Below, piece after piece: positions 38,054-63,137 of a stretch of DNA of 64,000 nucleotides. The notes below the pieces were generated by a model, which saw nothing but the letters and a program-made list of their open reading frames with translations, had not been told where the DNA came from and did no database searches. This DNA comes from Bdellovibrionota bacterium (GTDB taxonomy: Bacteria; Bdellovibrionota_C; UBA2361; CALJRW01): the NCBI GenBank assembly GCA_041740355.1, contig JBGSMD010000016.1:188936-252935 (forward strand), in the 5' to 3' direction. The position numbers were made by a program, and so were the translations under genes. Position 1 is the first letter of the stretch, and each line of letters begins with the position of its first letter.

Positions 38054-38054
38054 A

Positions 38055-38285: not shown

Positions 38286-38531
38286 CTTGAGCCAAGCAAC
38301 TGACATCTCAAATAAAAAACAAAGAAAAAGACTCTAAAAACTCAGCAGTCTAAAAGCTAATCAAAGCAATTATTAATATATTCTTAAATCTAAGGTACCA
38401 CGAACGTACCCCAGTCCCAGACTAGAATTTAGATTGCATAATAGTAATTATTGTTGTTGAGTCAGAATATTAAAAGCTTTTTAACAATTTTTAGATTGAT
38501 TTTCGTTAAATAAATATTTGGTTGGCTCAAG
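38286..38531. mobile_element. MITE-like derivative of the RAYT-like element
   Basis: Inverted ends CTTGAGCCAAGCAA / TTGGTTGGCTCAAG; left part matches 58001-58050, right part matches 61499-61637. Confidence 0.65.
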
Positions 38532-38824
38532 CTGAAGAGCTGAAGCTGAAATCTTTTGATGAAGTATTTGAGAAATATGAGAATTAATTGTGTAAAAATT
38601 TAGCTTGGCTCAAGAAAAAAAGAAAAAAAGGTATCAAGAGCCTGCCGCTAGGTATAAAAATAGGATGAATATTGCTAGAGTATTTTCTATCTGTATAATT
38701 AAGATCTAAGAGAATTAGAAGAAATGAGAAAGAGCCGAGCTCTAGTTAAAAAATTCAAGCTGCAGATTATCATGCCGTAAAAAACTCCATTTCGCAAAAT
38801 GTCCGTGGGGAGTTAGACTAAATT

Positions 38825-41299
38825 TTGAAAATAAAATACATGAAGTTGCTACCAAAAGATTTATACACCTTCGGACGAAATAATTTAGATCTAATATTCG
38901 CCACTTTCTTAATGGCGATAATCTTCAATCTCTCCCCTTACCTGCACACCTTTCAAAATAATCCTGATGAAGGATTAAATTTAGCTAAGGCGATGCTTCA
39001 TGCTCGTGGGCATCAGCTCTATCAAGAGATTTGGAATGACCAACCTCCTTTTTTTACAATTCTCCTCAATTATACAATGCAAATTTTTGGTGAAAATATT
39101 GAAGTAGCTAGAAATTTGATTTATGCACTTTCGGTATTATTAATTTTCTCTGTTAGTAGGATTTTAAATATTCTCTATGGAAATCTTACCGCAGTTATTG
39201 GTGCTACGATCCTAGTTCTGTCTCCCTATTATATTTTTCTAAGTTCGTCTGTCATGATAGGCTTACCAGCAATTTCTTTACTAGCGACATCACAATTACT
39301 ATTACTCTATTGGCATCGATATAACAAACTAGCTTTCCTAATCTTAGCTGTAATAACTTTTACACTTGCCAGCTTAACCAAGCTCTTTTGTCTGATTTTA
39401 CTTCCCGTATTTTTAATTGGAATTATTTTAACTACTGCCAAAACAAACCCTGGCTCATTAGTAAAACCTCTTAAAGTGATTCTAATCTTTCTAGTAACTA
39501 CTATTATTACCGTAATCGCAATTAATTCGAGATATATTCAGACTGAAACTATTTCTCAGTTACTTGCTCCCCATTTATTGGCTAGAACAGCAGAAGTATA
39601 TTTAGAAAAAACAAACCTTGGATTTAAGGGACATTATTCAGAATATTGGATCTTCTTACTTGGTGGATTTCTAGGTGGAATAATTTCCTTGATTAAAAAA
39701 AATAGCCTAGGGACTTATCTATTTAGCTGCTTTCTAATAATTTTTATCGCAATTATCTTTCACTACCCTGTCTGGTTTCACCACTTACTACTTCTAGCTG
39801 TCCCAGCGAGCATGTTAACAGCGATCAGCATGACATACTTAAGCAAATGGATCGCAGTGAGATTGGTAAATAAAAGATATCAAGCAATGCTCAGTCTTGG
39901 ATTCACTATCACCTTAACCATTATTATCACTACATCACACAAAGGTGCTTTTACTTTTCTTAATCTCTCCCATCCACAAGGTGATGTGCTTGAAACTATC
40001 GAGAATAAAATAGTGCGATATTTAACATTACCAAAGAGTAATAATCCAAATATTTTTACTGATTTACCAATATTTGCCTTTCGTTCCAAAATCAGTCCAC
40101 TTCCAGAATTTGCTGTGATATCGGAGAAAAGACAGAATACTGGATTTTTAACTACTGACCAAATCCTAAAAGGTCTGCAAAAATCTAACGCCGATTATAT
40201 TTTACTTGGTCGCTTTGATTTTCCAGAATTAAAAGATTACCTTAAAGCTAACTATCTAAAACTACGGAACACGAAACCATATCGCCTTTATATTCGGAAA
40301 GAACCGCTTCAAAATTCTACCTGCCAAAAGTTAATCGATTGTTTAGATTTACCACCTAATTGGTATGCTTCAAAAACAGCCTTAAGATTAGCTAATCGAA
40401 TTGTTAAACATCAGAATCTAGATGGTGGTTGGCGAAAAAATATTGATTTATCTTTAAAACCCAAAAAATTTGATAGAACCCAAACACATAATATTAAATC
40501 TACAATTGATAATAATGCAACGACTCAAGAGATTCGTTTCTTAGCAAAAGTTGGACAGCTTGTTCCCAAAAAGTCCTTCCAAGATGCAATCAATCGAGGT
40601 ATCAATTTCTTAATTAATAATCAATATCCTAATGGTGGCTGGGCACAAGTTTATCCTATCAAAAAAAAGAACTATACCACGGCAATTACTTTTAATGACA
40701 ATGCAATGGTTAATGTCCTGCGACTTTTGCAAGACATCAATAAAAATCTTGAATTTCAGATTATTACCGAACCTCAGCAAATCATAATTAAGCAAGCAAT
40801 CTCGCGAGGGATTCAATTAATTCTAAAAACTCAATTAACTGTTGCTGGTAAACCGACTGCTTGGGCGATGCAGTACCATCCTGTCACTTTACAGCCAGTT
40901 CAGGGCAGAAGTTATGAACCTCCCTCAATTAGCGGAAAAGAATCAGTAGAAATTATTAGATTTTTAATGGGCCAACCGGAACAAACAGAAGACATTATTA
41001 TCGCTATTGATAATGCAGTTAATTGGTTTAAAGATGTTGCCATTCCTAACTTAGAAGTAACTCAAAACTCAGCTGGTAAATATCATATTGCCCTTAAAAA
41101 GGATTCTCCACCAATCTGGGCAAGATTTTATGATTTAAAAACAAACCGACCAATTTTCCAAGATCGAGATGGGACATTAAGCGAGGATTTTTCGCAACTA
41201 TCTAAAGAGCGTTCAGAGAATTATGAATATTTTACTTACCTGCCGGATAAATTAATTAACAAAGAATATAGCGATTGGAAGAAAGGGATTTCTGATTAG
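38825..41299 (+). CDS. GT-C glycosyltransferase fused to PL10 (PelA-type) pectate lyase
   Basis: N-terminal PDEG and DQPP with many TMs; C-terminal DGGW, TIDNNAT, NGGWAQ, ITFNDNAM, R-YE, WARFY. Confidence 0.8.
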   Translation: MKIKYMKLLPKDLYTFGRNNLDLIFATFLMAIIFNLSPYLHTFQNNPDEGLNLAKAMLHARGHQLYQEIWNDQPPFFTILLNYTMQIFGENIEVARNLIYALSVLLIFSVSRILNILYGNLTAVIGATILVLSPYYIFLSSSVMIGLPAISLLATSQLLLLYWHRYNKLAFLILAVITFTLASLTKLFCLILLPVFLIGIILTTAKTNPGSLVKPLKVILIFLVTTIITVIAINSRYIQTETISQLLAPHLLARTAEVYLEKTNLGFKGHYSEYWIFLLGGFLGGIISLIKKNSLGTYLFSCFLIIFIAIIFHYPVWFHHLLLLAVPASMLTAISMTYLSKWIAVRLVNKRYQAMLSLGFTITLTIIITTSHKGAFTFLNLSHPQGDVLETIENKIVRYLTLPKSNNPNIFTDLPIFAFRSKISPLPEFAVISEKRQNTGFLTTDQILKGLQKSNADYILLGRFDFPELKDYLKANYLKLRNTKPYRLYIRKEPLQNSTCQKLIDCLDLPPNWYASKTALRLANRIVKHQNLDGGWRKNIDLSLKPKKFDRTQTHNIKSTIDNNATTQEIRFLAKVGQLVPKKSFQDAINRGINFLINNQYPNGGWAQVYPIKKKNYTTAITFNDNAMVNVLRLLQDINKNLEFQIITEPQQIIIKQAISRGIQLILKTQLTVAGKPTAWAMQYHPVTLQPVQGRSYEPPSISGKESVEIIRFLMGQPEQTEDIIIAIDNAVNWFKDVAIPNLEVTQNSAGKYHIALKKDSPPIWARFYDLKTNRPIFQDRDGTLSEDFSQLSKERSENYEYFTYLPDKLINKEYSDWKKGISD

Positions 41300-41469
41300 T
41301 TGATAATTAGACTGGTGTAAATCTCAAAAACATAAATTAAAATTAATTTGATATGTCTAACAAAGCTTCTAAAGCATTTCTGGAATTTGAATAGATAACA
41401 AATCAAAATATTTCCAGAGAAAAAAGATATCTTCTCGCCAAGAAGTCAAAACATTAATATGATATTAAA

Positions 41470-41877
41470 ATGTTATTTCGAGCGATTGTCATCTCCACCT
41501 TATTACTCTTTTCAAGTCTTTCTTTATTAGCGAAAGAAAATTACCCATTATCAGACTTTCCAATGTATTCTAACCCAAGTTCAAATAGATATTTATACTG
41601 GCTAGCGACAGATCAAGGTGAAGCATTACCAATTAAGACTTTCACTAAATATTCAGCTGCCCAATTTGGCAAGATAGTTAGAACTTATATTGCGAATGAT
41701 CAAAAAATTACAATCCCTTCCGATGAAATTAATAAACGTGTAGGCCAGCAGGTCTTGTCATATTTGCGACAAAATCAAAAGCAAACGCTGCCATTAAAAA
41801 TGGCAATTATGCGAACAGATTTCTCTTATCAAGATAATAAAATAGTCGAGAAGTCATTTATTTACTATTCTGAATAG
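41470..41877 (+). CDS. Hypothetical exported protein, partner of downstream membrane protein
   Basis: YPLSDFPMYS motif after hydrophobic N-terminus. Confidence 0.65.
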   Translation: MLFRAIVISTLLLFSSLSLLAKENYPLSDFPMYSNPSSNRYLYWLATDQGEALPIKTFTKYSAAQFGKIVRTYIANDQKITIPSDEINKRVGQQVLSYLRQNQKQTLPLKMAIMRTDFSYQDNKIVEKSFIYYSE

Positions 41878-41878
41878 C

Positions 41879-42982
41879 ATGTCGAGATTTAAATCTTATT
41901 TTCAACTACCAACAGTCAAAAGAATAGAGGCCTTTTGTTTAAGAATCTTACTAGCATTCACACTACTTTACTTCTTTCCAGATAAACTAGATTTGAAATA
42001 TCAATTACATCCAGTTGGTCTTGCTAAGTGGTTTGATTTGACTTGGCTATCAGACCCCTTAGGATTCGCAATAATTAAATTTGTTTTTCTATTTTTTATA
42101 TTTGCTTATGTTAGTGGTTTTAAGCTTCGCATCGTGCTTCCATTTTTAACATTAATCCAAATACTTCCATATACCTTGATGAACTCACAAGGCTATTTTG
42201 GACATAGCTACCAAATACTGTCGATCGTATTAATCTGGATCAGCATTTCCGCAGTTATCACAGAATCAATCAATAAAAAAAATAATCTGGCTGATTGTAA
42301 TTTCTTTCAATTAACTATCCCAATATTAGCAATCTTGATAACAACAATTTTTTTTACCCAATCCCAACGAGTATTTATTCTAATGACAAGCTTATTTCAA
42401 ATATCATTAGATCATAAGCAATTATTATTATCTTATTTTCCTATCTTTCTCATTTTAGCAATAAGTTTAAATAGATTTATTACAATTAAAATAAAAACTT
42501 CAGAGCCATCAGAATTGACAAACTCATGGCAACTGATTGCAGGACAAACTGCAGTAGCGTCCGTCTATTTCATTTCAGTAATTAGTAAAATATATATTAG
42601 TAACTGGCTCTGGCTTGCGAATAGCCCTTTCCTAGCTTTAGATTTTATTAAATCTAATCGGCAAAGCTTTTATTCCTTACTTGATCCAAAATATTTGGAA
42701 GTACCCATTGGTACTTTGTATTTGCTTGAAAATCAAAATATAGCTAGAATTTTTTTTGGTAGTGGTTTACTTCTGGAATTTTCTGTCTTTATTGCTATTG
42801 GGTGTAGAAAACTCTCATTATTATTTGGCATTTTGCTAATTACGATGCATCAGCTAATTAAATATTTAATGACAGTTAATTTTCAAACTAATGAAATCAT
42901 GCTTTTAATCTTCTTTGTGAATCTTCCTTATTGGATACTTCACATTAATCTCGTCAAACCAATTCTTGCAATTAAAAAGTAA
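41879..42982 (+). CDS. Polytopic membrane protein, possibly HTTM-like
   Basis: Many TMs; GH, Y..S..SK...W, E, H pattern. Confidence 0.55.
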   Translation: MSRFKSYFQLPTVKRIEAFCLRILLAFTLLYFFPDKLDLKYQLHPVGLAKWFDLTWLSDPLGFAIIKFVFLFFIFAYVSGFKLRIVLPFLTLIQILPYTLMNSQGYFGHSYQILSIVLIWISISAVITESINKKNNLADCNFFQLTIPILAILITTIFFTQSQRVFILMTSLFQISLDHKQLLLSYFPIFLILAISLNRFITIKIKTSEPSELTNSWQLIAGQTAVASVYFISVISKIYISNWLWLANSPFLALDFIKSNRQSFYSLLDPKYLEVPIGTLYLLENQNIARIFFGSGLLLEFSVFIAIGCRKLSLLFGILLITMHQLIKYLMTVNFQTNEIMLLIFFVNLPYWILHINLVKPILAIKK

Positions 42983-43028
42983 CTAGTTGAAATTCTGGAA
43001 TTAGATCTTATGTCAGAAGATTTTCCCC

Positions 43029-43488
43029 TTCACCTTGTGTTACGCCTCGTGCCAGGCTCACAGCCATTAACTTAAGGGTGTAAATATTAGAAGTGTTTGG
43101 AAAGTTCCAGGCACTTGGTTAAAGCGTTAAAGTCTGGAATATCTTGTGGATTAATGACTCAGAGAAGAAAGTGAATATGATCTCCATTTACGAGAAAGTG
43201 GCTTATTTTTACTTGGTGATGAAGATGAGCTTTAAGTAATGCAGAAGTTATGATGTATTTAACTAGTGGATTAGCAGTTAGCATTATTCCACTCTCTACG
43301 TTTGTAGTTAACATATAGAATAATTATGGAAGATTGTTCTTCTTAGTCTCCCGCAGTTGCTTTTAGGTTCTGCAGGCATTGCTACACTATTAACTATTTC
43401 CATTTATTCGAATTTTAATCTTTTGATTAAGTTTTCGAGGAATGTGAAAATTAGTTGTGTAAAAAGTTAGGGTGACTCCAGAAAAAAA
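43029..43488 (-). repeat. ~460-bp direct repeat copy 1: truncated RAYT 5' end with upstream end site
   Basis: Near-identical to 47359-47819; 1-bp deletion near 43320; encodes the MEIVNS...CGRLRRTIFHN start. Confidence 0.9.
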
Positions 43489-43505
43489 ATTTCAAGAAAA
43501 AAACG

Positions 43506-46500
43506 TTAATCAAAATTAGTTTCAGGTAATTTTAAATCTTTAATAATCTTTAAGAAAGCAGAGATTACTAGTTTCTCTTTGGTGTTGAGCCCATTTTGAA
43601 TTAGGGGATTGGAGATATATTCAGCTAACCTTTGTCTGCCGCTTTGGCTTCGTTCGCTAAAAATTTCCTGAAAATATTCTCCAATACTTAAATTTTTATT
43701 ATCCATCTTTGTGCTGATAATTCGATCTTCTTTTAATTGTACTTTTAGCTTTTCAGGATCTGGAAAACTACCAGAATAAGAAAGGCTAACAACCCTTTCA
43801 AAAACAGCGATAAATGGTTTAACAGCAGGCAGGTTTATAGGTAAATGAAATAATCCTTCAGGATTGAAAGTATTATTATCAAGGTTTAAGGTAGGCTTAT
43901 GACTTTCCACCGAAGCTAATAAATTATCAAACTGGTCTGTCGCACTTTTAATTTTGACATATTTATTATGATTTAACTCTTCCGCGAGAGCTGGTTTTTT
44001 TAGGAATTCGGGCAAGTTACTTGTCTTTACTCCTAAAGTAAAAACTGCACCATTTGGCCAGACAACGAATGTTTCGGCATGTCCATTAACTGAGTGTAAT
44101 ACTCCTGCTTCTGACATAATTCCTGTGGCAACTCCTGCTACCATTCCAAGCTCGCGTAACATCGCACATTGTAATTCAGCAAAATCAATGCACACGCCAG
44201 CAAACATTTTTCCTTTCATTCCAGCGACTTTTTCTGCTCGAAGTTCAATCGCCCGGATCGTTGAGAATTGAAATTTGTTATCGGCACCAAACATTTCTCT
44301 TCTTTCAAATGTTTCACCATTTTTATAATCGTAAAAACATATATCCTCCAGATATTTTTGAACTAAAATTAGATTATCTAGTGGATCACGTCCCGCTTTT
44401 TTCAATTCACTAATAAATATTTTTATCTCTACAGGTAGTTTGACTGACATGGCTAGATAGTTTTCTCGCTCAATTTCAAATCCAGCTAACTGTTGATTTA
44501 AGAAATTATCTGCTTCCTCTTTAGTAATATGATTGGGCACGGGCTTTGCCACCGGAAGATTAATTTTAAAGTTTAACTGCGCGCTATTGGAAATTTGGTA
44601 CTGGATTGAGCCGTTAGGAAGGGGACTTTCGGAAAAGTTTACCTTTGCTTGTCGGGCTGTTGGTACCTTTTTCCCAGTAATTGGATTGGTAGGTATTCGG
44701 GGCTTTGCAACGAGAGAATTCTTTTCGACATAGGCTCCAACTGGCACAGGAATATCAAGTATGGGGTGAAAACCTTTCATCTCAGCTTTTACGCTTTGAA
44801 ATGAACCCTGCGGATTAATCACACTGGGAAGAGTAACTTCTCCCCATCGCCCTTGTGCCAAATGTAAATAATAATTTTGAATATAGAAATCATTTGATTT
44901 GATATTAACACTCATTAAAGGCTTAGCTTCTTTTATAGCTAATGGATCACCGCCCCACATTTTAACACTATGTTCTTTTTTTAGAATCACTTGACCATGG
45001 CGATTAACATGACGAATTTCCTCCTTTGCATATAGCAGTGTTGCCAAAGCTTCAACGTTTTTAGGGCCGCCATTATCCTTGGCAGGCAAATATTCTAACC
45101 AGAGCTCAGCTTCTGAAGGTAAGCTTCGATTAATACGATCAACTAAATGTTCTTGACTGGAACGTAATTCCCTATCGGCTAATCTAGAATCTCCATGATA
45201 GACATTATTAAGTACGTCTTTTACTGATTCCGGAGTAGGATTTGCGAGTACATCCAAAACTTCTAGCTTACCTAAAAGCTCTTGGTCTAGTTTAGATAAT
45301 TTTGAAAAACAAAATGAATGTTTGGTAAGCTTTTTGCCATGTAAAGCAATTATTTCCAGACAATCAGTATCTAAATTATAATTAAAAGAGTTACTTTCTA
45401 AGATATTATTACGATTAATTTCAGCTGGTAGAGGTAAAAGCTGGTTGTTAAATAAAACGCTAAGTTCACACCCAGCGCCTTGAACTATGGCAGCTAATTG
45501 TCCACAACAGCTAAAAATCTCAACAACATGTTTGAAGGCAAGAAGAGATTCAGACACTAATTTTCCATCACAGACTATTTTGGATCCAGTCTGATCAAGT
45601 AAGCTGTAGGCAATTTTACCACCTATATCTGTAAGGTGAGAAATACTATGCTTTCCTTCTGATTTCACAGGAACTTCAATAATTTCATCCCCATGAACAA
45701 TTTTAGAATTTTCATAGAATGGTATTGACTTCTGTGGCATACTACTAAATATCCCTGTTAATTTACCATTTACAATTGTTAATAGTCTCACACTATAAAA
45801 ATACGGCTCGATCGCTTTTGGAATTGCTTGCATTTGGCCATCAACAAATAAAAACGGTTTTTGACGATACATGCCACTGGCAAAAGCTTTACCATTTAGA
45901 AATCCATAATCCATTATTTGGTGGGATTGTTGATCAAGATATGGCAGTTGAAAAGACTGGGTATTTTTAATTAATCTTGTAATTGTGGAAAATGGATCAT
46001 ATAAATGATATAGAACATCTACCCCATTAAAGAGAGTAACATAAGCATTACGTTCCGTTGATTGCAAATCTGCCAGAATATTTTCCTTGCCATCTAGAAA
46101 GTACTTTCCAGGTGAAGTAAAGACCACTATCTTACCTTGATAGTAATTAATAGTTGCAGTACTAAAATGTTTAATTTTACCTTGCAAAGGAAGATTTTCT
46201 TCAGAAACTTTTTGTAGTTCATATTTAAAATTACCATCTGGAGTAAGTATAAAATCATATCCTGTTAAATCTTCTGGTAAACGTTCTCTTTCTCTCTCGC
46301 TCAAGGAATTAATGCGTTCAGCCCTTAAAGTTTGATTGCCAATAACTCTTTCTTTTAGGACATAATTATCAACTTCTGTCCTAATAAGCTCATAACAACT
46401 AGCAGCTAATTCGCTGTGAATCTCGCCCAAGAGTTCAATCATTGCTCCTTGTTTCCATGCTTTAGACACTAGTGGATCTAATTTAGCTTGAATCATATGT

Positions 46501-47147: not shown

Positions 47148-47358
47148 TATTAATTAATCGTTTGATTGATGGAAATTCATAAGTTAAATTTTGGGTCTAT
47201 AAGGAGGAAAAAGCTTGTTTTTCTTGGATTGCTACTATGAGGCATAGAAATAAAGTACTTTCCTATCGTTTAACTTGACTATGAGCGTTTAGTTGAGAGG
47301 AAGTTCATCTTGTGCCAGGCAACTTTTTCTAGGTCTAGTTTACTCCGAGTCAATATTA

Positions 47359-47819
47359 TTCACCTTGCGTTACGCCTCATGACAGGCTCACAGCCATTGA
47401 CTTAAGGGTGTAAATATTAGAAGTGTTTGGAAAGTTCCAGGCACTTGGTTAAAGCGTTAAAGTCTGGAATATCTTGTGGATTAATGACTCAGAGAAGAAA
47501 GTGCATATGAGCTCCATTTACGAGAAAGTGGCTTATTTTTACTTGGTGATGAAGATGAGCTTTAAGTAATGCAGAAGTTATGATGTATTTAACTAGTGGA
47601 TTAGCAGTTAGCATTATTCCACTCTCTACGTTTGTAGTTAGCATATAGACATAATTATGGAAGATTGTTCTTCTTAGTCTACCGCAGTTGCTTTTAGGTT
47701 CTGCAGGCATTGCTACACTATTAACTATTTCCATTTATTCGAATTTTAATCTTTTGATTAAGTTTTCGAGGAATGTGAAAATTAGTTGTGTAAAATGTTA
47801 GCTTGGCTCAAGAAAAAAG
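47359..47819 (-). repeat. ~460-bp direct repeat copy 2: truncated RAYT pseudogene (ORF 47489-47734)
   Basis: Aligns to N-terminus of 60455-61480 including HxH (AHMH); premature TGA. Confidence 0.9.
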
Positions 47820-47824
47820 AAAAA

Positions 47825-47872
47825 AATACAGGAATTTAATCTAATTTTGTTTAAGTTCTCTACATAGCAACT
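47825..47872 (-). mobile_element. IS110 left-end stub
   Basis: One mismatch to 63045-63092. Confidence 0.9.
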
Positions 47873-47889
47873 CAAGAAAAAGAATTAAA

Positions 47890-48480: not shown

Positions 48481-48626
48481 TTTTATTTTATCAATTAAAT
48501 TTACAAGTGAAGTGAAATTATTGAGTATGTCCCATATTGCGCTAGAATTTGGTGAACCCTGTGTTAATATACTCATGAAGCAGCCAAAGTTTCAATCGTT
48601 ATTTTTCCCTTTCCCCTTTTCCCTTG

Positions 48627-48657
48627 AGTGCTATCTGGAGAACGTAAACAAAATTAA
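48627..48657 (+). mobile_element. Degenerate IS110 left-end stub
   Basis: AGT-GCTATCTGGAGAACGTAAACAAAATTA vs AGTTGCTATGTAGAGAACTTAAACAAAA; preceded by CCCTTG. Confidence 0.7.
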
Positions 48658-49921: not shown

Positions 49922-50291
49922 AATAAGCTAAACTTCTTAATCTTGTGACACCCAAGTTTATTCTCTCACCCCCCGATACTAATCTAAACTACTTTTAGAT
50001 TACTTTTAGCGCCAGCTAACTTTTCTTTGCGCAAGTTGATCAAACTTTCTACACTCCTGCTGAATATTTCTACAGAGCATGATAAATCATAACTTTAAAA
50101 GCTTTCTTTTTAGTTAGAAAGTTGCCTGGCTATAGATAAAACTTAAAGTTTAAAATAGCGCTGATGAGTTTGAGCTGATTGCTGACATGAAGTAATACTT
50201 AAAACTGAGTTCGACTTAAATTAAGACAGTTATTAGGCTAAACTTTTTTGAAATTCCCTAATTAAAAGTATTGTTTTATTACTATTATCTT

Positions 50292-51257: not shown

Positions 51258-51382
51258 GAAGGTGCAAATTCTTTAAATAGTAAGCAAAAATTTAATGGAA
51301 GCAAAAGAGCCAATTCCTTAATTAAGAAAAATAACATGATATCTAAAAGGACTTTAGGTTTAGAAATTCTCGTTGAGATCAT

Positions 51383-52963: not shown

Positions 52964-53223
52964 TTTTTTCTTTTTTTCTTTTTTTTGGCTCAAGATGAAG
53001 ATGAAAAATCGGTCTTGCCCCTTAAATTTATGATTTGAGTCTATGGATCTCAGTTTAGAGATCTATCCACCCTTCCACATATTTATCATTCCGATCAATT
53101 TAAAGAATTCGCGACGAAAGACTCGCGAGCCTGATTAGCGGAACAGCTAGTATTAAAGTCACTTCTTTAACAGGGTAACCCCCTGATTATATAAGAGTTT
53201 ATATCAAATGATTTTATGAACAT

Positions 53224-54620: not shown

Positions 54621-54820
54621 ACTTTTGTTGCCTTTTTTGCTCCAAGGATACCAGTACAGGGGAATCTCCCTCCTCTCTTGTGCCAGGCTACTTTTTTCGG
54701 CTCAAGCTGAAAGTTTAGAGTTGAACAAAGAGATTCGGTATGTGAATCTATAATTAATACTGGATGTTGAAACTAGCGGTATTCATTAGCCCTTAAACTT
54801 AAAGTCATTGAACAAAGAAG

Positions 54821-55354
54821 ATGAATGAAAAGAACAAGAAGATTCTAGGGGCACTCATAGTTTTTTTATTATTCTGGGTAGTTGACATAACTGCGGAGAA
54901 CCATTCTGTTGTTAATGGCTTTAAAGTCTCTCTAGATAAGAAGTTTCAGCCAGTCCCTCCTCAGGGCTTCTTAAAATTTGTTTTTAGTACTCCACAGGAT
55001 TCAAATGTTGTGAGGAGTATCTCCATAGGACATGTAAGCAATAAGCTTGAAGCGGAAGGATCGTCTATAAATATTGAAAGCTTTGAACAACTATATTCCA
55101 TATATAAAGAGCCAATGCTTGAAGTTATTAAAGATACAATAAAAAAAGTTGACACAAATTTTCAAACACAAGAGCACTTATGGAAAATAAGTACTGTTTA
55201 TAGAAAAGAATTATTTATGAGTATGGCAGGAACGCCTACAAAAGACGGGGCATTACTTGTTATATTTTCTTATCTTGATATCCCAAAAGAAATTGATACT
55301 GAAAAAGCCGAAGCAGAATTTAAAAGTATTCTTCAGACAATTACTAAAGAATAG
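54821..55354 (+). CDS. Exported hypothetical protein
   Basis: N-terminal hydrophobic segment. Confidence 0.6.
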   Translation: MNEKNKKILGALIVFLLFWVVDITAENHSVVNGFKVSLDKKFQPVPPQGFLKFVFSTPQDSNVVRSISIGHVSNKLEAEGSSINIESFEQLYSIYKEPMLEVIKDTIKKVDTNFQTQEHLWKISTVYRKELFMSMAGTPTKDGALLVIFSYLDIPKEIDTEKAEAEFKSILQTITKE

Positions 55355-55433
55355 ATTCAGACTTAGATCCATTTCTTTATTAGCTTGGCTCAAGAAAAAA
55401 TATCTATGACAAATAGTTACTCATGCCTTTCTA

Positions 55434-57425
55434 TTATCGCGCTTCAATTACAACAGTGTTAGAGCGGATAGTGTCTTCCTCATTCCTTATCACAACTGCT
55501 GTCCGCTTCCCAGTCTCACGTCCCCAAGACCATGTACCATCTTTTCCCACCGGGATCCTAGCAGTACCTTGTTGAAAACCAACTTGGCCTGGGAATCTAA
55601 TCCATGGTACCAAGACATCACCCTCATTGAAGCCTTGGCTCGTACCAAAAACTTCGATTCTCTTATCCACGCGGGTTCCATCAAGGATGAAGATTGACTG
55701 CACTATTGCGATTGGGCATTTTGCTGCTTCATTTAATTTCCCCCTAGCATCTGCCAAAAGGTCTTTGGCTGCTTTATTAACACGATCTGCCCGCCGTACT
55801 TTTCTGATTGCCCGATTAATTTTTCCAATTGCCTGTTTAATATTCTTATCCTGACATTCTGTACCAGCATCGCTAATAAATGCTATCTGTAATTCTGATA
55901 TAAGCGCCTCTGCATCAATTATAAATTGCTCCGCATCAGATTTATTTATTAATTTGATGTTATTTCTTCCACTTGTTATTGACTCCGATACCGCGGTCGC
56001 TGTATTTGGCACTTCACATTCCTCACCCTCATAACCAGCAGCACAGGTGCAAGTTCCATTACCACTTACTCCAGCACTGCAGGTTCCATTTTCTCCGCAG
56101 TCTGGGCATTCAATATTACAACTTGACCCCGCGAAGTTTGCGACACATTCATTGCAGCTCATTCCAGTGAATCCCGTAGCGCATGTGCAAGTTCCGCTAC
56201 CTGAAACGCCTGCATCACAAGTTCCATTTTCTCCACAATTTGGACATTCGATATCGCAACTTACTCCCGCTAAATTTGTGGCACATATACTACAGTCATT
56301 TCCTGTGAAGCCTGTCACGCAAGTGCAGTTACCACTACCTGCAACACCATCATCACAGCTTCCATTTCCACTACAGGCTAAAGCTCCTGAGCCTCCAGGA
56401 CAGTTCGAGCAGGAAATACCAAATTGGCCAGCAGGACATTCAAAGGGAGCTGGTTCACCATAAAACCAGATGTCATCAAGAACGCCAGAATTTCCAACAC
56501 CACCAAAAATAATGGCATTGTCGCTTGAGGAGTTAAAAACCATCCTGGCATTTCCTCGGGCAGCTGGGCTTGCTGCAGGTGAGAGTTGAGTCCAGTTTGT
56601 ACCATCATAGCTCCAAGTATCTCCAAGAGGAGATCCACTTGTTCCACCAAAAAGAAATACTCTGTCATTCAACGTATCGTATGTCATGCTCGGAGCGAAT
56701 CGAGTAGAAGGTGAAGCTGCTGTGTTGATTTCACTCCAACTAGTACCATTAAATTCCCAGGTATCGTTTAAATTCTCGGAAGCACCTACCCCACCAAAAA
56801 TAACAAGCACATCACGATCTGGATCGTAAGCAATTCCTGCGTCTGCCCGAGCGGGAGGGTTTGTTCCAGGAGTAATGTCGGTCCAGTCAACACCGTTCCA
56901 ACTCCAAAGGTCACTCAAATATGTACCATTCTGGAGTTGCCCCCCAAACATGAGCGTCCGATTATTTGTCGAATCATAGACCATGGAGTGAAATCGTCTC
57001 CCACTAGGTGATGTCACTGGACTTTTCTGGGTCCATGTTGATCCACTTAATGTCCAAGTCTGATTGCTTAATCCAACTCCCACGCGGCCACCAAACATGA
57101 CATTGTTTAAATTAGCAGAATCATAGACCATGCTAAATCCATCCCTCGCCGAAGGAGTCCCTGTTGTAGCTAACTGAGTCCAACTTGTTCCATTAAAGGT
57201 CCAAGTATCATTGATTGCATTAGCACCATTGTCACCACCAAAAATAATCACTGAGTTATTGGTCGAATTAAAACTCATTCCGAAATCAAGCCGCCCAGAA
57301 GGTTTTGTGCCAGGGCTCTTATCTGTCCAGTTGGGTACAGCATAAACCTGTGCAGGAATAAATCCTAACAACAAGAATAAAATAGTAATCTGAGAGGAAA
57401 GAAAAGCTGTGATTAAATTTTTCAT
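55434..57425 (-). CDS. Secreted Kelch-repeat + EGF-like repeat protein
   Basis: Six FGG...DTW Kelch blades; three C..NG.C..G..G.G.C.C..G..G..C units. Confidence 0.85.
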   Translation of the reverse strand: MKNLITAFLSSQITILFLLLGFIPAQVYAVPNWTDKSPGTKPSGRLDFGMSFNSTNNSVIIFGGDNGANAINDTWTFNGTSWTQLATTGTPSARDGFSMVYDSANLNNVMFGGRVGVGLSNQTWTLSGSTWTQKSPVTSPSGRRFHSMVYDSTNNRTLMFGGQLQNGTYLSDLWSWNGVDWTDITPGTNPPARADAGIAYDPDRDVLVIFGGVGASENLNDTWEFNGTSWSEINTAASPSTRFAPSMTYDTLNDRVFLFGGTSGSPLGDTWSYDGTNWTQLSPAASPAARGNARMVFNSSSDNAIIFGGVGNSGVLDDIWFYGEPAPFECPAGQFGISCSNCPGGSGALACSGNGSCDDGVAGSGNCTCVTGFTGNDCSICATNLAGVSCDIECPNCGENGTCDAGVSGSGTCTCATGFTGMSCNECVANFAGSSCNIECPDCGENGTCSAGVSGNGTCTCAAGYEGEECEVPNTATAVSESITSGRNNIKLINKSDAEQFIIDAEALISELQIAFISDAGTECQDKNIKQAIGKINRAIRKVRRADRVNKAAKDLLADARGKLNEAAKCPIAIVQSIFILDGTRVDKRIEVFGTSQGFNEGDVLVPWIRFPGQVGFQQGTARIPVGKDGTWSWGRETGKRTAVVIRNEEDTIRSNTVVIEAR

Positions 57426-57618
57426 CTGTATGAGTAGTAACTAAATATTTATCTGTTTAAGCTTCCCCTAAAATTAGTGAACAAACTTTGCAGGCCGCAT
57501 TGGCTTCAAATTGAGCAGGCGACATGAAGTTGTACGAGGAATTGTTTCAATTTCTATAATAAAAGCTTTCCCCCTTTCCTGCTAGACTATTTTTTTCCTT
57601 CTCCCCTTATTCCCCTTG

Positions 57619-57639
57619 AGTTGATATGTAGAGAACTTA
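57619..57639 (+). mobile_element. IS110 left-end stub
   Basis: AGTTGATATGTAGAGAACTTA preceded by TCCCCTTG. Confidence 0.75.
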
Positions 57640-57762
57640 TGTTTTAAAACCAGACTTTAAGATCGAAATGAATCTCTCTAAATAAGAAGAATAATTGTTT
57701 TAGATTTTGATTAAAAACGAAGATGAGACGTCTAAACTTTGATTTTAATATGAAGACAAAGA

Positions 57763-57978
57763 ATGACAAAAACTAAAGATGATTCGAATACTTTAATTGG
57801 TATGGGCGCAGGCGTTGGTGTCTTAGGAGCAATAGGAGCATTTGCGACTGGTGCGATCTGTCCATTATGTATTTTCGCCGTTCCCGCTCTAGTTGGGACT
57901 GGAATCTACCAAAAATTTAAAGCTCCAAAAGAATCTCAAATTATTATCGAAGAAAATCCAGCAATAGCGGAAGACTGA
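57763..57978 (+). CDS. Small membrane protein with CxxC
   Basis: Gly-rich TM, CPLC. Confidence 0.65.
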   Translation: MTKTKDDSNTLIGMGAGVGVLGAIGAFATGAICPLCIFAVPALVGTGIYQKFKAPKESQIIIEENPAIAED

Positions 57979-58068
57979 TTGATCCATCCAAAGTTTCCCC
58001 CTTGAGCCGACCAACTGACGTCTCAACTGAAAAAACAGTGAAAAAGACTCTTCCCGATGAAAAGTATT

Positions 58069-58361
58069 TTGAAGTATTTGAAATAAAAAGTATCCTGTCA
58101 CTGGGTAAAAATTGTATTCATGAGCCACTAATGTATTTGTGCAAAAAGCTGTTGCCAAATTGACCCTTTGATCTTGCCCCTAACATTTTCCCCCTTGAGC
58201 CGACCAACTTTTTCCTTCAAAAAATAGTTGGTTGGATAAAGTTGAAGTATTTGAAATAAAAGTATCATGTCACTGGGTAAAAACTGAAGTGATGAGCCAC
58301 CAATGTATTTGTGCAAATAGCTTTTGCCAAATTGACTCTTTGATCTTGCCCCTAACATTTT
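58069..58361 (+). repeat. Two ~120-bp direct repeats (58069-58189, 58242-58361) separated by an end-site hairpin
   Basis: TTGAAGTATTTGAAATAAAA...GATCTTGCCCCTAACATTTT twice. Confidence 0.9.
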
Positions 58362-58369
58362 AAAGGAAC

Positions 58370-59566
58370 TCACTTTCCCCCTCTCTCTCCAATCCTTTCT
58401 TCTATAACCTTAATCTCTCGTTCAATCTCCGCCTTAAGTTCTTCCTCGCTTGGAAGCACTGCACTATACTTACTAGCAAACAACTGTTCACTCCCCTTTA
58501 GCACAGAATACTTAGCAACCACTGAATCACTTTCTGAACAAAGGACAATTCCAATAGTTGGATTGTCAGACTCCTTCCGCTTTAATTCATCATACATCCG
58601 AACATACATATCCATTTGCCCAATATCTTGATGAGTAAGTTTAGTAGTTTTGAGATCGATTAAAACAAAACATTTAAGTTCAAAGTTATAAAAAACTAGA
58701 TCAATAAAAAAATCGGAATGTTCAGTTCTAATATGTTGTTGGCGAGCAACAAAAGCAAAACCCTTCCCAAGTTCTAATAGGAAACTTTGCAAATGAGCAA
58801 TTAACCCATTTTCTAAATCTTTCTCCTTGTAGCTGGAATTTGTTGGTAAATCCAAGAATTCCAGAACAAAAGGATCCTTGATAAAATCTCGAATCTTGGA
58901 TTTTTGATTATTAACTTCTTCACTAAGTCTTGATTCATCATTAGCTGCAGATATAACTACTTGCTGGTCTTTAGAAGATAGAATTCTTTCATAATAGAAA
59001 GACTGAATATTTCGCTCTAGGTTTCTTGAACTCCACCCCTGATTAGCACATTCATTAATGTAATATTCCCTCGCTTTTGGATTTTGTACGCGCATGATCA
59101 TTCGATAATGCGTCCAAGTAAGTTCACTTCTAATGATACTCGGCAATTCGTCACTCACTGCGTGACGAATTCCAACTAATTGATTTTCCTTGTTTTTTTG
59201 CAAACCCAATTCGTCACACACTGTGTGACGAATTGCAACTACTTGATTTTCCTTATTTTTCTGTAAACTCAATTCATCACACACTGTGTGATGAATTGGG
59301 AAAGTCAGATAAAACTGCCTAAAATATTTTAAATTAGTAGCCGAGAAACCACCCCCAAATTCCTTAATCAACTCACCTGCTAGTGAATCTATTAACATTT
59401 TACCATAGCCTGCTTTAGATTCTCCTAGTTGTTCTTCCTCTACAATTCTACGCCCAATATTGTAATAAGCCTGAACCATGTAAAAGTTAACTGCTGAATA
59501 TGCCTGTTTACGACTACTATTAATGATCGTTTTTATTTCATTAATTAATAAACTATTAAGTTCCAT
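58370..59566 (-). CDS. YhcG/DUF1016 PD-(D/E)XK nuclease family protein
   Basis: IKDPFVLEFL, LLELGKGFAFVARQ, FIDLVFY, GQMDMY, DNPTIGI. Confidence 0.92.
   Translation of the reverse strand: MELNSLLINEIKTIINSSRKQAYSAVNFYMVQAYYNIGRRIVEEEQLGESKAGYGKMLIDSLAGELIKEFGGGFSATNLKYFRQFYLTFPIHHTVCDELSLQKNKENQVVAIRHTVCDELGLQKNKENQLVGIRHAVSDELPSIIRSELTWTHYRMIMRVQNPKAREYYINECANQGWSSRNLERNIQSFYYERILSSKDQQVVISAANDESRLSEEVNNQKSKIRDFIKDPFVLEFLDLPTNSSYKEKDLENGLIAHLQSFLLELGKGFAFVARQQHIRTEHSDFFIDLVFYNFELKCFVLIDLKTTKLTHQDIGQMDMYVRMYDELKRKESDNPTIGIVLCSESDSVVAKYSVLKGSEQLFASKYSAVLPSEEELKAEIEREIKVIEERIGERGGK
59145..59297. repeat. Three 27-bp intragenic palindromes at 63-bp period
   Basis: AATTCGTCACACA-C-TGTGTGACGAATT variants at 59145, 59208, 59271. 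Confidence 0.9.
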
Positions 59567-59746
59567 TTTAATCCTCCAAATCTTTCGGTAATTTAATCCT
59601 GCAAAGATTATCGAGAATTCTTTGGTTAAGTATTACTTTAGTCTTCTGTCTAACACTTTTCTTTTTAGATCAAGAAACTTTGATATTTTGAGGTTCAATA
59701 GTCTGGCTCTTTTTTAAGAAATGGGATTATTCAGCCTATTAAGTTA

Positions 59747-60058
59747 TTATGTGCCATATCGCTCAGCAACTCTTTTTGCAATGAAATCAAAAACCTCGAT
59801 TGGAGTTGAACGAATACCTAAAGAATTATCTAAATCAGGTTCCCAGACTGGAATCGAATTGCTGTTACTAAATTGGGCTTGGGTTACACCTAGATAGGAT
59901 TCTTTGCCATCCCAACTAAAGCGCATTCGATCATGTGGCTTACCTACAATTACATGCCAACTCCCAAATACTTGGTAATAGTATGCATGTTCGTAAAGTG
60001 TAAGACCTATGATCTCGAGCTGAGTAGCTAATTTGTTGAGTAGTTCAGTATGTTCCAT
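59747..60058 (-). CDS. Hypothetical protein, integron-cassette-like
   Basis: 103 aa; GTTACGT just upstream of ATG and ACATAA at the stop. Confidence 0.65.
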   Translation of the reverse strand: MEHTELLNKLATQLEIIGLTLYEHAYYYQVFGSWHVIVGKPHDRMRFSWDGKESYLGVTQAQFSNSNSIPVWEPDLDNSLGIRSTPIEVFDFIAKRVAERYGT

Positions 60059-60264
60059 CTTTACACGTAACGAGGCAGAACTAAAAAACTAAACTTACTG
60101 GCTCCCTTGGTCAATATATCTTTTAATATTTAGGGACTGGATTGATTTCAAAGTAGCCGGTCTCTAGTTGTAATTTGTTTGTAAAACTTTAACCTTCTTG
60201 GACTCATAATTTTCGCAAGTAAAGTCTCTTGATGGAACTAACTAATGGACCCATTTTTTTCTGG

Positions 60265-60288
60265 AGTTGCTATGTAGAGAACTTAAAC
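60265..60288 (+). mobile_element. IS110 left-end stub
   Basis: AGTTGCTATGTAGAGAACTTAAAC, exact reverse complement of 63069-63092. Confidence 0.85.
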
Positions 60289-60454
60289 CTTTTCAACCTT
60301 CAATCTTAACCAATGATCACATTTTGAACATTTTCTCCTCATATTTTGCCCTTCTTCCCCTTTCCCCTCTTTTCCCCTTGAGCCACGCCAAAATTTTACA
60401 CAACTAATTGTCTTTTTTATCGAATAATTAATCAACAGATTAAACTTTCGATAA

Positions 60455-61480
60455 ATGGAAATAACAGATAATACAGAACTGCAGTCAGAACCTGAATTTA
60501 AAAAGAAATGTGGCAGACTAAGACGTGCCATCTTTCACAATCATGTCTACATGCTAACTACCAGCGTAGAAAGTGGCATAATGCTTCCAGCTAATCCCCT
60601 AGTTAAATATGTAATATCTTCAGCACTACTAAAAGCACAGCTCCATCACCAAATAAAAATAAGCCATCTTCTGGTAAATGCCACCCATATTCACTTTCTT
60701 GTCAGAGTGATTAACCCACAAGACATCCCAGACTTTATGGAACGATTTAAGACAGAATCAGCACATTACCTAAATAGATTACTAGGAAGAAAGAAAAGAA
60801 CAATTTGGTGTGACAGGTATGACATGTCAGCAGCACTGGAAGCTTCTGATGTTATAGATAGAATTATCTACATTTATACTAATCCTGTAAAAGATGGCTT
60901 AGTCTCTAGTATAGATTTATACCCAGGACTAAGTAGTTGGAATAGATTTAATTCTAGTAAGAGCTACCTTAAGGGAAGTCTAATTTCCAGAAGAGATATT
61001 AAACCAGTTGAACAAGTAGCAAGTGAAGAACATTTTGAAAGAGCAAGAAAACAGCTAGCCGTAAAGAAAAAACTCAGGACTCTAGTAATTGATCCTAACG
61101 ACTGGATGAAGGCTTTTAAAATTACTAATAAAGATGAAATAGAAGAAATCAATAAAACTATCAAGGAAGGTATTATTGAAAGAACCAAAGTAATTCATGA
61201 GAGAAGACTTGAGGCTGGTAAAAAGCAATTCTTAGGATCTCATAAGTTAAGAAATCAAGAAATTAACTTAGAGTATCAATCTAAAAGATCTGGCAGAAAG
61301 ATGTGGTGTTACTGCAGGAATATTGAAAGAAGAAAGCAATATATCTCTTGGGTTAAAGAGCTAGCAGCAGAAGCTAGAGAAGTTTATAGAGCGTGGCAGA
61401 GTGGAGACACAAGTAGAGCTATGCCAATTGGAATGTTTGCTCCAAGGATGCCAGTTCAGGGTAATTTAATTTTTTGTTAG
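60455..61480 (+). CDS. REP-associated (RAYT-like) HUH Y1 tyrosine transposase, intact
   Basis: THIH HUH motif, W.DRY, YIYTNPVKDGLV catalytic Tyr helix, LSSW. Confidence 0.88.
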   Translation: MEITDNTELQSEPEFKKKCGRLRRAIFHNHVYMLTTSVESGIMLPANPLVKYVISSALLKAQLHHQIKISHLLVNATHIHFLVRVINPQDIPDFMERFKTESAHYLNRLLGRKKRTIWCDRYDMSAALEASDVIDRIIYIYTNPVKDGLVSSIDLYPGLSSWNRFNSSKSYLKGSLISRRDIKPVEQVASEEHFERARKQLAVKKKLRTLVIDPNDWMKAFKITNKDEIEEINKTIKEGIIERTKVIHERRLEAGKKQFLGSHKLRNQEINLEYQSKRSGRKMWCYCRNIERRKQYISWVKELAAEAREVYRAWQSGDTSRAMPIGMFAPRMPVQGNLIFC

Positions 61481-61744
61481 AAATACATTAACAGCTTTTT
61501 CTAGTCTGGGACTGGGGTACGTTTGTGCTGCCCAAAATTTAGGTCTCGTATGATTAATTATTGTAGGTGGATAAGGATAAGAACACCTTTTGCTGACTTT
61601 TTCGATTGATTTTCGCTCAATAAATAGTTGGTTGGCTGTTATGAGAGAAGTCAATAAAAAAATTGATTCTGCTTAATACCATTTAGGCGTTTTATATTGA
61701 CTACTTAAACAGTAGCAAATATCTGGAAAATTTGCGTTCTTTTT

Positions 61745-61916
61745 GGTATCTTGTAACACAAGCTGTTATCCGTGGTAATCACCTCGGTAGTTCCACAAGT
61801 TGCAAAATTCGTGATAAAAGAAGCTGTGCCTCAAACTAAAGCAGGTGGTTACTTAAAAAGTACCACAGCCTGGCACACGAGGTCACAGCAAAATCTGTTG
61901 TTACAATGATGATACC
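61745..61916 (-). ncRNA. Predicted bridge/seek RNA of the IS110 element
   Basis: Outer stem GGTATC..TTGTAAC / GTTACAA..GATACC; two GTGG..CCAC hairpins each flanked by segments matching target (AGGCT, CTTTAGTTTGAG) or donor (GCAACT, ATAACAG). Confidence 0.75.
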
Positions 61917-61944
61917 TTGCAGCTTAGCAAATTTGCGAAATTTA

Positions 61945-63011
61945 CTAAGCTGCCTTTTCTATTTTGGTATCAGAATAATTTATTTCATAATTAGTTTGTT
62001 TTCTAAAAAGAGCTCTTGCTCGTCCACTAAGTTTTCTGGCGATAGCAACAATTGCTTTCTTGCCATTTTTTCCCGCAGCAATTCTTGAATAAGTTTGTTT
62101 TAGAATTGGATCCTTTCCAATTGTAATCCAAGCTGATTCGGTTAGCAGTTCTCTAATTCTAGAATTACCTTGCCGAGATATTCTTCCTCTTCTAATACTT
62201 TCACCACTTGAGAATTCACAAGGTGTTAATCCTAAGAAGTTAAATAATGCTTTCTCGTTTCTAAACTGAGACATATCACCTAGCTCAGTTGCTAAAACAG
62301 TAGCTGTTTGAATTCCAATACCTGGGATTTGTAAGTAAGTTTGAACAATACTGGAAACTTTAGCTTCTTCTAAAAACTGCTGATTTAATTGTTTTATTTG
62401 CAGTTCTAGTTCTTTCCAAATAGATAGTAGTGGATACAAACTAAGCCTTACTTTCTCAGGAACAACGTTACTCATAATTAAGTTTGTGGCAGATTTATAA
62501 GTTAAAACTATTTTTAAATTTTCTGGAAACAAACCAAAGTGAATTAGCCTCATCCTGATCCTTGCGATTATTCGTACTCTGTCTTGTACTAACTGTCTTC
62601 TAGTCCTGTGTGCTAATCGACTTTGCTCTTGTTCTGGGGTTGGTAGATTCCTTTTAGTAATCCTAAACTTAAATGCTTTGCCATTTTTGTGGCATCTCTT
62701 TTGTCTGTCTTTACCCGATCTTTGGATTCAACTGCAATGGAAGACGAATTAACTATGATATTATCAATACCTGCTTCTGTTAATTCTCGGTGCAGAACAA
62801 AACCACTAAATCCTGCTTCGTAAACAGTTCTAAGGTTTGCTTTTGGATAATTACTTTTTAAATACTTGATTAGCCTTTCAGGACTTCCAGGCATTCTGGT
62901 TTTCTTTACTACTTCCGATTCTATTAATTCAACTACTGTGTAGCTTGTACGGGGAACATCAATACCGACAAATACTTCGCCTTCGTACTGCTGATTCTTT
63001 AATGTTGAAAT
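61945..63011 (-). pseudogene. IS110 DEDD recombinase, frameshifted
   Basis: VGIDV, YEAG, KTDKRDA, IPGIG, LGLTP..FSSG, AIARKL; ATT after AGGAG where ATG is expected; frameshift near 62645. Confidence 0.9.
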
Positions 63012-63137
63012 GGCAGACTCCTAAACTTAAATTAATTTCCAGATAATACAGGAATTTAATCTATTTTTGTTTAAGTTCTCTACATAGCAACTCCAAATAA
63101 AACTAAAAAAAACTAACTGAATTATTTATTCTGTTTG

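Follow-up and report, generated by a model that had tools for sequence, protein, structure and literature searches.

Terminal repeats of a Y1-transposase element very probably account for a motif that punctuates an accessory region of a Bdellovibrionota genome

The window analysed here is a stretch of 64,000 nucleotides from a Bdellovibrionota bacterium (GenBank assembly GCA_041740355.1, contig JBGSMD010000016.1, positions 188,936 to 252,935 of the forward strand), in which the spacers of an array of accessory genes carry copies of an eight-letter motif, GGCTCAAG (CTTGAGCC on the opposite strand). An initial annotation of this DNA took the copies for ends of mobile DNA that assemble or shuffle single-gene modules. 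Close to the end of the window the motif bounds an element that carries a transposase gene and that is followed directly by an insertion sequence (IS):

60371 to 61637, plus strand: autonomous-type element of 1.26 kb, bounded by inverted repeats with a GGCTCAAG core and carrying the transposase gene
60455 to 61480, plus strand: intact gene for a 341-residue class-2 Y1 HUH (RAYT/TnpA-REP-like) transposase, assigned from profiles, motifs and fold
61638 to 63090, minus strand: IS1111-like (IS110-family) element, 1453 bp long, its transposase broken, sitting at the CT of the right-end motif

The gene at 60455-61480 encodes a class-2 Y1 HUH transposase of the RAYT/TnpA-REP type, with intact catalytic motifs and fold. 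Pfam Y1_Tnp matches the protein with 34.7 bits (cut-off 23), and the residues H78-I-H80 and Y139-x3-N143-P144 are invariant when 33 homologues are aligned and correspond to HMH and YIYINP in 4ER8, the E. coli TnpA-REP structure; the combination of HUH with Y-x3-NP is given as the class 2 signature in passages of Quentin et al. (PMC6006769). 4ER8 is the closest solved structure by sequence (E 0.0011), and 4ER8_A is the top Foldseek match (E 1.4e-7, TMt 0.73, rmsd 2.7) of a structure model with a pLDDT of 87.9, followed by the TnpA proteins of IS608 and ISDra2. These matches span only the N-terminal core; the C-terminal ~180 residues are confidently folded in the model, and residues 160-341 (182 residues) have no Pfam match at E < 0.05, with no DnaA-C/HTH domain detected. 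The family has 19 matches in this genome, among them three full copies, paralogues and fragments, and the proteins of the three full copies are 93-100% identical.

The ~19-bp terminal inverted repeats (TIRs) of the 1.26-kb element have the motif GGCTCAAG as their core, since three units in the genome share these ends and the sequence outside the ends differs among them. In a BLAST search against the genome, the window element matches C51:14054-15258 (92.9% identity over 1206 nt) and C51:22036-23296 (88.7% over 1262 nt), both on the contig C51. Each unit begins with a pyrimidine run, followed by CTTGAGCC-ACGCC (TTTCCC-CTTGAGCC-ACGCC in the window) or, in the third copy, by CTGGAGCC-ACCC. The right ends read ...GGGCT/GGGTT-GGCTCAAG-CTGAAA, and both C51 copies are complete to GGCTCAAG-CTGAAA; the window copy ends ...TAGTTGGTTGGCT, interrupted after GGCT by the IS1111-like insertion, and it is thus without the last four letters. 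Read inwards, the TIR is TTTC-nn-CTTGAGCC-A-nnCC, with TTTCCCCTTGAGCCACGCC at the left end and TTTCAGCTTGAGCCAGCCC at the right; the two are inverted with respect to each other and are not the hairpins of repetitive extragenic palindromes (REPs). The outer GAAA is counted as part of the repeat because all six right-end-type sites read CTGAA, and an alignment of 16 sites extends the conserved word beyond the 8-mer, to K-T-n-G-S-T-T GGCTCAAG n-n-G-A-A-A. More distant members of the family carry comparable ends: the paralogue on contig C63 (49% identical) also ends ..CCTGGCTCAAG, and the one on C26 (50% identical) has CTTGTGCCACGC / CTAGTGCCACGC.

Within the left end, a block TTACACAACTAATT lies 20-33 nt from the terminus (window 60397-60410); it is near-invariant in eight copies that are otherwise ~77% identical, only one of which departs from it (at two of 14 positions), and it could be a putative binding site or promoter element. 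Folding of the left end shows a subterminal hairpin (z = -3.5) that begins to matter ~40 nt in from the terminus. A hairpin just ahead of the transposase start codon and the TTACACAACTAATT block may be binding or regulatory sites. On contig C51, at 15333-15557, right-end units stand in tandem.

The window holds 11 exact copies of the motif or its complement, against 1.62 +/- 1.43 expected, and none of 100 shuffles reached 11. Ten of them had been listed by the initial annotation and are all present (on the plus strand at 38524, 38607, 47805, 52987, 54699 and 55387, on the minus strand at 38286, 58001, 58194 and 60377). Its remark that the first 34 kb hold none needs a correction, as an exact plus-strand copy occurs at 18737; this copy is most likely a chance one, because it lies inside an open reading frame (ORF) of 281 codons and is without the purine-rich flank that the others share. 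Genome-wide the 8-mer is not enriched, its 94 copies in 3.27 Mb being the chance rate; the scan for clustering that had been proposed finds chance level throughout, except for the cluster in the window (10 copies in 22.1 kb against 0.54 expected; Poisson P = 3e-10) and a second one on C51, where six copies stand in the same sequence context at 4281-23293. Of 13 genome-wide copies of the extended word GGCTCAAGNNRAAA, 11 fall in these two clusters, which hold the full element copies.

The variant or IS-occupied sites reported alongside the exact ones are real in all seven cases: 43474 reads GACTCCAG and lies within a repeat copy, 34748 reads GGCTCAGC, and 47871, 48623, 57615, 60261 and 63091 are half-sites (CTCAAG, CTCCAG or CTCCAA) adjoining an IS end. 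The stop codons cited near the sites agree with the ends of listed ORFs. The description of all sites as intergenic is right for the long ORFs, between which the listed sites lie, but at 58001 and 58194 there is overlap with short ORFs (81-89 codons), which are probably not real genes. A sister core, CTYGTGCCAGSC, similar to the ends of the C26 paralogue, had been missed; its copies are at 34775, 43046, 47309 and 54677, with a weak variant at 49942 and a further copy at 20840. With sister cores included, 13 of the 16 intergenic spacers at 34.7-63.1 kb have one site or more (12 without the weak 49942), so that the impression of punctuation was a fair one.

Most of these sites are the termini of recognisable pieces: 15 of the 17 listed ones have element-derived inner sequence or an IS end, and only 52987 and 55387 consist of a terminus alone. 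The pieces are as follows:

20840 to 21090, plus strand: decayed sister-family element outside the listed sites, a CTTGTGCCAGGC end followed by a transposase pseudogene
34746 to 34821, no strand assigned: variant core GGCTCAGC (34748), then sister-family CTCGTGCCAGGC (34775), by sequence match
38280 to 38539, no strand assigned: miniature derivative of 246 nt with both ends and no gene, from CTTGAGCC at 38286 to GGCTCAAG at 38531
38550 to 38629, minus strand: solo left-end fragment that terminates in the motif (38607-38614)
43029 to 43487, minus strand: deletion derivative, copy 1, ~440-460 nt, with CTCGTGCCAGGC at 43046 and a variant core at 43474
47304 to 47355, plus strand: sister-family end CTTGTGCCAGGCAACTTTTTC, 94% identical to C13:97136-97187
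47359 to 47818, minus strand: deletion derivative, copy 2, ending in GGCTCAAG at 47805
47825 to 47881, plus strand: IS1111-like left-end remnant (98% identical to IS positions 1405-1453), then the half-site CTCAAG-AAAAAG
48616 to 48656, minus strand: IS1111-like left-end remnant and half-site, with CTTGAG at 48623, in inverted repeat with 47842-47882
52987 to 52994, plus strand: solo core between a T-run and ATGAAG, with no recognisable element interior
54636 to 54712, plus strand: right-end fragment, the last transposase codons followed by an inverted pair of CTTGTGCCAGGC (54677) and GGCTCAAG (54699)
55380 to 55394, plus strand: short left-end-type terminus TTAGCTTGGCTCAAG between two convergent genes
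57615 to 57639, minus strand: IS1111-like left-end remnant and half-site, by repeat match and junction
57995 to 58051, minus strand: third end type CTTGAGCCGACCAACTGACGTCTC, solo, 86% identical to 38280-38335
58188 to 58245, no strand assigned: inverted doublet of 52 nt, the smallest derivative, CTTGAGCCGACCAAC ... GTTGGTTGGATAAAG at 58194-58245
60255 to 60288, minus strand: IS1111-like left-end remnant and variant half-site CTGGAG, by repeat match and junction

The right part (38426-38527) of the miniature at 38280 is 75% identical to the right end of the element (61536-61637) and matches the C51 right ends as well; the fragment after it shares 78-90% identity with three left ends, at 43417-43495, 47748-47826 and C51:4224-4293. 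The two deletion derivatives are 97% identical to each other and 76-77% to the full elements, and they consist of the left end plus ~80 transposase codons (the first copy reads as a transposase fragment with one stop), with the sister core CTCGTGCCAGGC as the other boundary; they stand as direct repeats on either side of a 1213-residue gene (3.9 kb). At 34775-34812 the sister family is 89-92% identical to 43046-43083 and 47376-47413, and the fragment 54636-54665 is 93-97% identical to the 3' end of the transposase gene. The 52-nt doublet folds as a hairpin (z = -3.8; 0 of 200 shuffles equal it). The pseudogene next to the 20840 end is matched at 20928-21086, with three stops. For the site at 52987, BLAST finds no match to either reference element.

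The insertion that disrupts the window copy is the sole full copy of the IS1111-like element in the genome. Its transposase is in two pieces, 62613-62894 and 61945-62553, both matched by NCBIfam transpos_IS110, and Pfam Transposase_20 is matched as well; the subterminal inverted repeats (61644-61661 and 63064-63081) lie 6 and 9 nt from the element ends, and the coordinates leave 307 nt of non-coding sequence downstream of the transposase gene and ~196 nt upstream. Subterminal inverted repeats and a long non-coding region downstream of the gene are named as features of the IS1111 group in passages of Siddiquee et al. 2024 (PMC11187229), which also give REPs (for ISPa11) and attC sites (for ISPst6 and ISKpn4) as targets of family members. 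The junctions read TTGGTTGG-CT | IS | CT-CCAAAT, which places the insertion at the CT of the right-end motif. Ten short remnants of the same IS are found in the genome (19-199 nt, five of them in the window), all from the transposase-proximal end and all including the terminus, and several adjoin CTCAAG and a purine run. In all 11 junctions the IS end ...GCAA is followed by CTC (in five by the full CTCAAG, in the remainder by CTC and then CAG, TAG, AAT, CAA or TAA), after which comes the purine run. The proposal that an IS1111-like element inserts into the sites at a fixed position thus holds in every junction, and this site family has been a target of the element in the way that REPs are for ISPa11. 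Like the known repeat-targeting members, it has subterminal inverted repeats, a long downstream non-coding region and one fixed position within a repeated site; it differs in having the end of a Y1 element as target and in its broken transposase. A search for a guide RNA matching the target gives only matches of 6-7 nt, on the variable part of the site, and an Rfam scan of 34-64 kb at E <= 0.1 has zero matches.

The same arrangement recurs among relatives. The protein family is present in 37 of 41 sampled genomes of the same order, often in several copies; in genome G016, six copies are 95-98.5% identical over ~1.5 kb. A de novo inverted-repeat search finds the gene between inverted repeats with related cores in eight of 14 loci examined (four loci have no pair of flanking repeats and two only spurious pairs). 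The cores include CTGGTGCC, CTGGAGCC, CTGTAGCC and CTGTACCG, and the end sequences are variants of one theme (CTGGTGCCACCC, CTGGAGCCGGGCTCCAGG, CTGTAGCCCGGCT, CTGTACCGGGGCTAC, TTGTAGCCGGGCTACT), of which CTTGAGCC is the local version, CT plus the GTAG-like TGAG; several relatives' repeats are GTAG-type palindromes, that is, ordinary REPs (CTGTAGCC and others). The rigid pattern CTnGnGCCA missed most of the distant relatives. Core copies number 356 in the 2.6-Mb genome of G016, where a 12-nt core was counted, and 39, 17, 7, 4 and 4 in five other genomes; reversed-pattern controls give 0. They form arrays next to the gene as well as inverted doublets with a spacing of 84-145 nt, and on G022:C101 the doublets follow each other every 1.4-2.4 kb, with the same punctuated look. 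To the left of each of the six transposase copies in G016 (L013-L018) stand tandem units of ~85 nt that start with the 12-nt end core.

Very probably, then, the motif sites are the conserved ends of a Y1-transposase element, whose full, shortened and broken copies have accumulated in the spacers of accessory regions. Boundaries, inverted ends, catalytic motifs, fold, derivatives and IS junctions are all directly observed, as is the recurrence of the arrangement in relatives. On this reading, the punctuation would be made up of one full copy, miniatures of 52, 246 and ~440 nt, solo or truncated ends, and the sister end family CTYGTGCCAGSC; the RNA-guided DEDD element of the IS1111 kind would have inserted later at the CT of the motif, leaving the broken full copy and the left-end remnants. 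TnpA-REP enzymes that have been characterised cut single-stranded DNA at CT with GTAG as guide and can rejoin ends (as passages of PMC8266576 describe); by analogy, the 341-residue protein would bind the end on single-stranded DNA, nick it via Y139 at the CT adjoining the GTAG-like TGAG, and then transfer or rejoin the strand. Such cutting and rejoining may copy the unit and yield deletion derivatives, tandem right-end units like those at C51:15333-15557 and solo ends, and the same enzyme could occasionally recombine two sites.

Several points weigh against this account. NCBIfam REP_Tyr_transpos (NF047646, an equivalog model) gives the protein 59 bits, under the cut-off of 80. The argument is weakest at recognition: among Y1 substrates, the biochemistry has been worked out only for REPs and IS200/IS605 ends, and in the full copies the end core forms no hairpin, while the right end folds no better than shuffled sequence (z ~0). 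A short palindrome, CTTG-GCT-CAAG, is present in some left-end copies only; the cores of the full copies do not pair, and because of this, together with the right end that does not fold, recognition of the ends may differ from that of REPs. The bare termini at 52987 and 55387 are explicable only as extreme truncations. The sites are restricted to a few accessory regions, unlike classical REPs, which are spread genome-wide, and the ten left-end IS remnants against zero right-end ones are an asymmetry that the model does not explain. No target duplication is visible at the two C51 copies, and no empty site, circle junction or polymorphic insertion is seen, so that mobility is inferred only from the multiple near-identical copies. 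The public runs with the stretch, four in one study, contain it as contigs only; at all five listed joints and at the loose ends 47817 and 60371 the run contigs continue into other repeat copies (C13:3315, C51:4293, C51:14054), with no rearrangement among the joints, although contigs cannot show rare circles or excisions.

The cassette model of the initial annotation, in which integron-like recombination sites capture and reshuffle single-gene modules without an integron integrase, is very unlikely. It draws on a real resemblance to integron arrays, in which short recurring sites also lie between unrelated accessory genes and the attC sites are likewise a target of the IS1111 family: at least one site in most spacers (13 of 16, or 12), unrelated accessory functions between them, the 1213-residue gene between two 97%-identical derivatives in direct repeat, a 228-residue gene between inverted half-sites, and TnpA-REP enzymes that cut and rejoin their sites in vitro (in passages of PMC8266576 and PMC6006769). 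However, the sites have no common orientation, occurring both ways round and up to four per spacer, the genes lie on both strands, and the interior of the transposon lies on one side of every well-preserved site; what the sites bound is the transposase gene and its deletion derivatives, and in relatives the repeats form arrays beside the transposase gene rather than around cargo. When 34-64 kb is compared with the genome by BLAST, only repeat or element sequence is shared, and none of the genes between sites recurs elsewhere. The absence of an integron integrase had been claimed and is borne out among the 40 ORFs scanned against Pfam (22 in the window beyond its first 29 kb, and 18 on C51), which include no IntI tyrosine recombinase with attI; in this material there is also no attC-like structure, and neither sequences nor orientations of the sites correspond to attC architecture (an imperfect palindrome, RYYYAAC ... 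GTTRRRY) with co-oriented cassettes. Of the initial reading, the sites as ends of mobile DNA, the IS1111-like insertion and the missing integrase stand; the assembly or shuffling of modules is not supported, and the Y1 HUH transposase gene that the element itself carries had been overlooked. A narrower form of the idea, improbable but less so, is that the Y1 enzyme cuts and rejoins pairs of sites, thereby excising, inverting or moving the intervening DNA, which would consist of single accessory or defence genes; the 3.9-kb gene between the derivative copies and the 228-residue gene between half-sites would then be such modules, and the DNA between sites could be moved by recombination, be it through the enzyme or through the homology of the 97%-identical derivatives. 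If true, the turnover of genes in accessory islands would be driven by a transposase of the REP type, in an HUH-based process on single strands that parallels integron cassette exchange.

A different history for the same elements is the strongest competitor, though still unlikely: the accessory region may have been imported from a repeat-rich donor, so that the clustering would not stem from local transposition. Most of the 3.27-Mb genome is free of the sites, one relative has 356 copies genome-wide, the region carries accessory and eukaryote-like genes, and synteny with the nearest genome, G001 of the same genus, stops ~70 bp before the first motif site. In that comparison, 34-64 kb matches G001 only at 35802-38215 (2.4 kb, 70% DNA identity) and in pieces of repeats, and three of the 17 ORFs in the 17.5 kb around the match map to this contig. 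Against an import, the GC fraction is 0.32-0.37, like that of the rest of the window; the element copies are 89-97% identical within and between the two clusters, which argues for recent copying in place; and decayed members lie elsewhere (window 20840, C13, C26, C39, C63). That the motif represents ends or footprints of the IS1111-like element itself is scarcely conceivable: five half-sites in the window are joined to IS ends, but the full motif bounds three Y1 copies and a number of derivatives that have no IS sequence close by, which contradicts this explanation, only one full IS copy exists, and the IS splits the motif (GGCT | IS | CTC...), which is the behaviour of a target. Equally remote is a regulatory word (promoter, terminator or transcription-factor site) common to co-regulated accessory genes, a role that intergenic sites, many just past stop codons, might bring to mind; their orientation and distance to genes are not fixed, they are located at the boundaries of repeats, and the Rfam scan of the region is empty.

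As an element of the REPtron/TIRtron kind, bounded by ends of this sort, the unit is ordinary and not a new gene-cassette system; it is unusual in its multi-copy state and its confinement to accessory regions. It comes close to the TIRtrons, which Di Nocera et al. 2013 (passages of PMC3733652) describe as RAYT genes between TIRs, with copies of the TIRs making up clustered families of moderate abundance, and to the TIRYT, which are subclass 2.1 in the corresponding passages of Quentin et al. 2018 (PMC6006769). Shared with these are a RAYT-like Y1 gene bounded by inverted repeats other than classical REP hairpins, repeat copies that form a moderately abundant family of single, paired (38286/38524, 58194/58245) or clustered members, and a long protein with a C-terminal extension; in contrast, the GGGGWSAS motif of most, though not all, published cases is absent from these ends, the C-terminal 182 residues have no DnaA-C/HTH domain in the Pfam search, and the gene is multi-copy at 93-100% protein identity, whereas class 2 is described as low-copy with diverged copies. 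REPtrons (the REP/BIME/REPIN systems of E. coli, Pseudomonas and Stenotrophomonas) have in common with it the enzyme class (HUH, Y-x3-NP, a 4ER8-like fold), a gene between inverted repeat units, non-autonomous inverted doublets, a conserved CT beside a GTAG-like tetranucleotide and, via the relatives of the same order, true GTAG palindromes in up to 356 copies. Here, however, the inverted flanks have CT-TGAG-CC as their core instead of GTAG, and full copies have no hairpin; there are only ~30 sites, in accessory regions, with three near-identical gene copies rather than a single-copy gene, and the whole gene-bearing unit has apparently been copied, a behaviour that REPtrons do not show according to passages of PMC6006769. 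The IS200/IS605 elements IS608 and ISDra2 are alike in the Y1 HUH fold, in a subterminal hairpin, here ~40 nt inside the left end, and in that no target duplication is seen; they lack TIRs and have transposases of ~130-150 residues, against TIRs, 341 residues and a class-2 Y motif here, where the hairpin lies near the left end only and not at both, and where the NCBIfam IS200 model (NF033573) scores 21.7 bits against a cut-off of 55.

Among the genes around the sites, several are of interest in their own right. The pair at 35802-38053, a carbamoyltransferase and an SxtJ-like membrane protein (74% and 52% protein identity to G001), is the only part of 34-64 kb that is conserved both in G001 and in a same-family genome. 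It is followed at 38825-41299 (plus strand) by an 824-residue fusion of a PMT_2-type membrane glycosyltransferase and a pectic acid lyase domain. A 663-residue protein encoded at 55434-57425 (minus strand) consists of Kelch repeats and then teneurin/laminin-type EGF repeats, a eukaryote-like architecture, and its gene contains an internal 138-nt tandem repeat (56035-56310); the YhcG/DUF1016 PDDEXK nuclease gene at 58370-59566 (minus strand) likewise contains a 63-nt tandem duplication (59144-59269), each unit of which has a near-perfect palindrome, AATTCGTCAC...GTGACGAATT, within coding sequence. On C51, a 1068-residue protein with a PAAR motif and carboxypeptidase-regulatory-like domains is encoded between two motif sites (L028:4526-7732), and the second motif cluster is adjoined by four minus-strand genes in a row (G000:C51:24188-31755, or L029:4188-11755) that resemble a type I Zorya anti-phage system, namely a 716-residue protein, an OmpA-like one, EH_Signature and SNF2-helicase/Mrr. 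The last 119 nt of the contig (63882-64000) are 100% identical to the ends of contigs C11 and C13 and 98% to that of C20, with similar stretches at contig ends in G001, which points to a further high-copy element that breaks assemblies.

For the family of IS1111-type RNA-guided elements, the end of a Y1 element is added to the known targets. An apparent integrase-less cassette system is removed from the candidates, the recurring site having an ordinary explanation. In passages of the published surveys, class-2 genes are low-copy and REPtrons do not move as units; in this order, an uncultured hot-spring lineage, class-2 Y1 genes look like active insertion sequences, with near-identical gene-bearing copies (three here, six in G016) and miniatures, and their short ends range within the one order from true GTAG palindromes to non-palindromic inverted repeats. 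The clade could therefore serve as natural material for testing if these enzymes mobilise DNA, and by what route.

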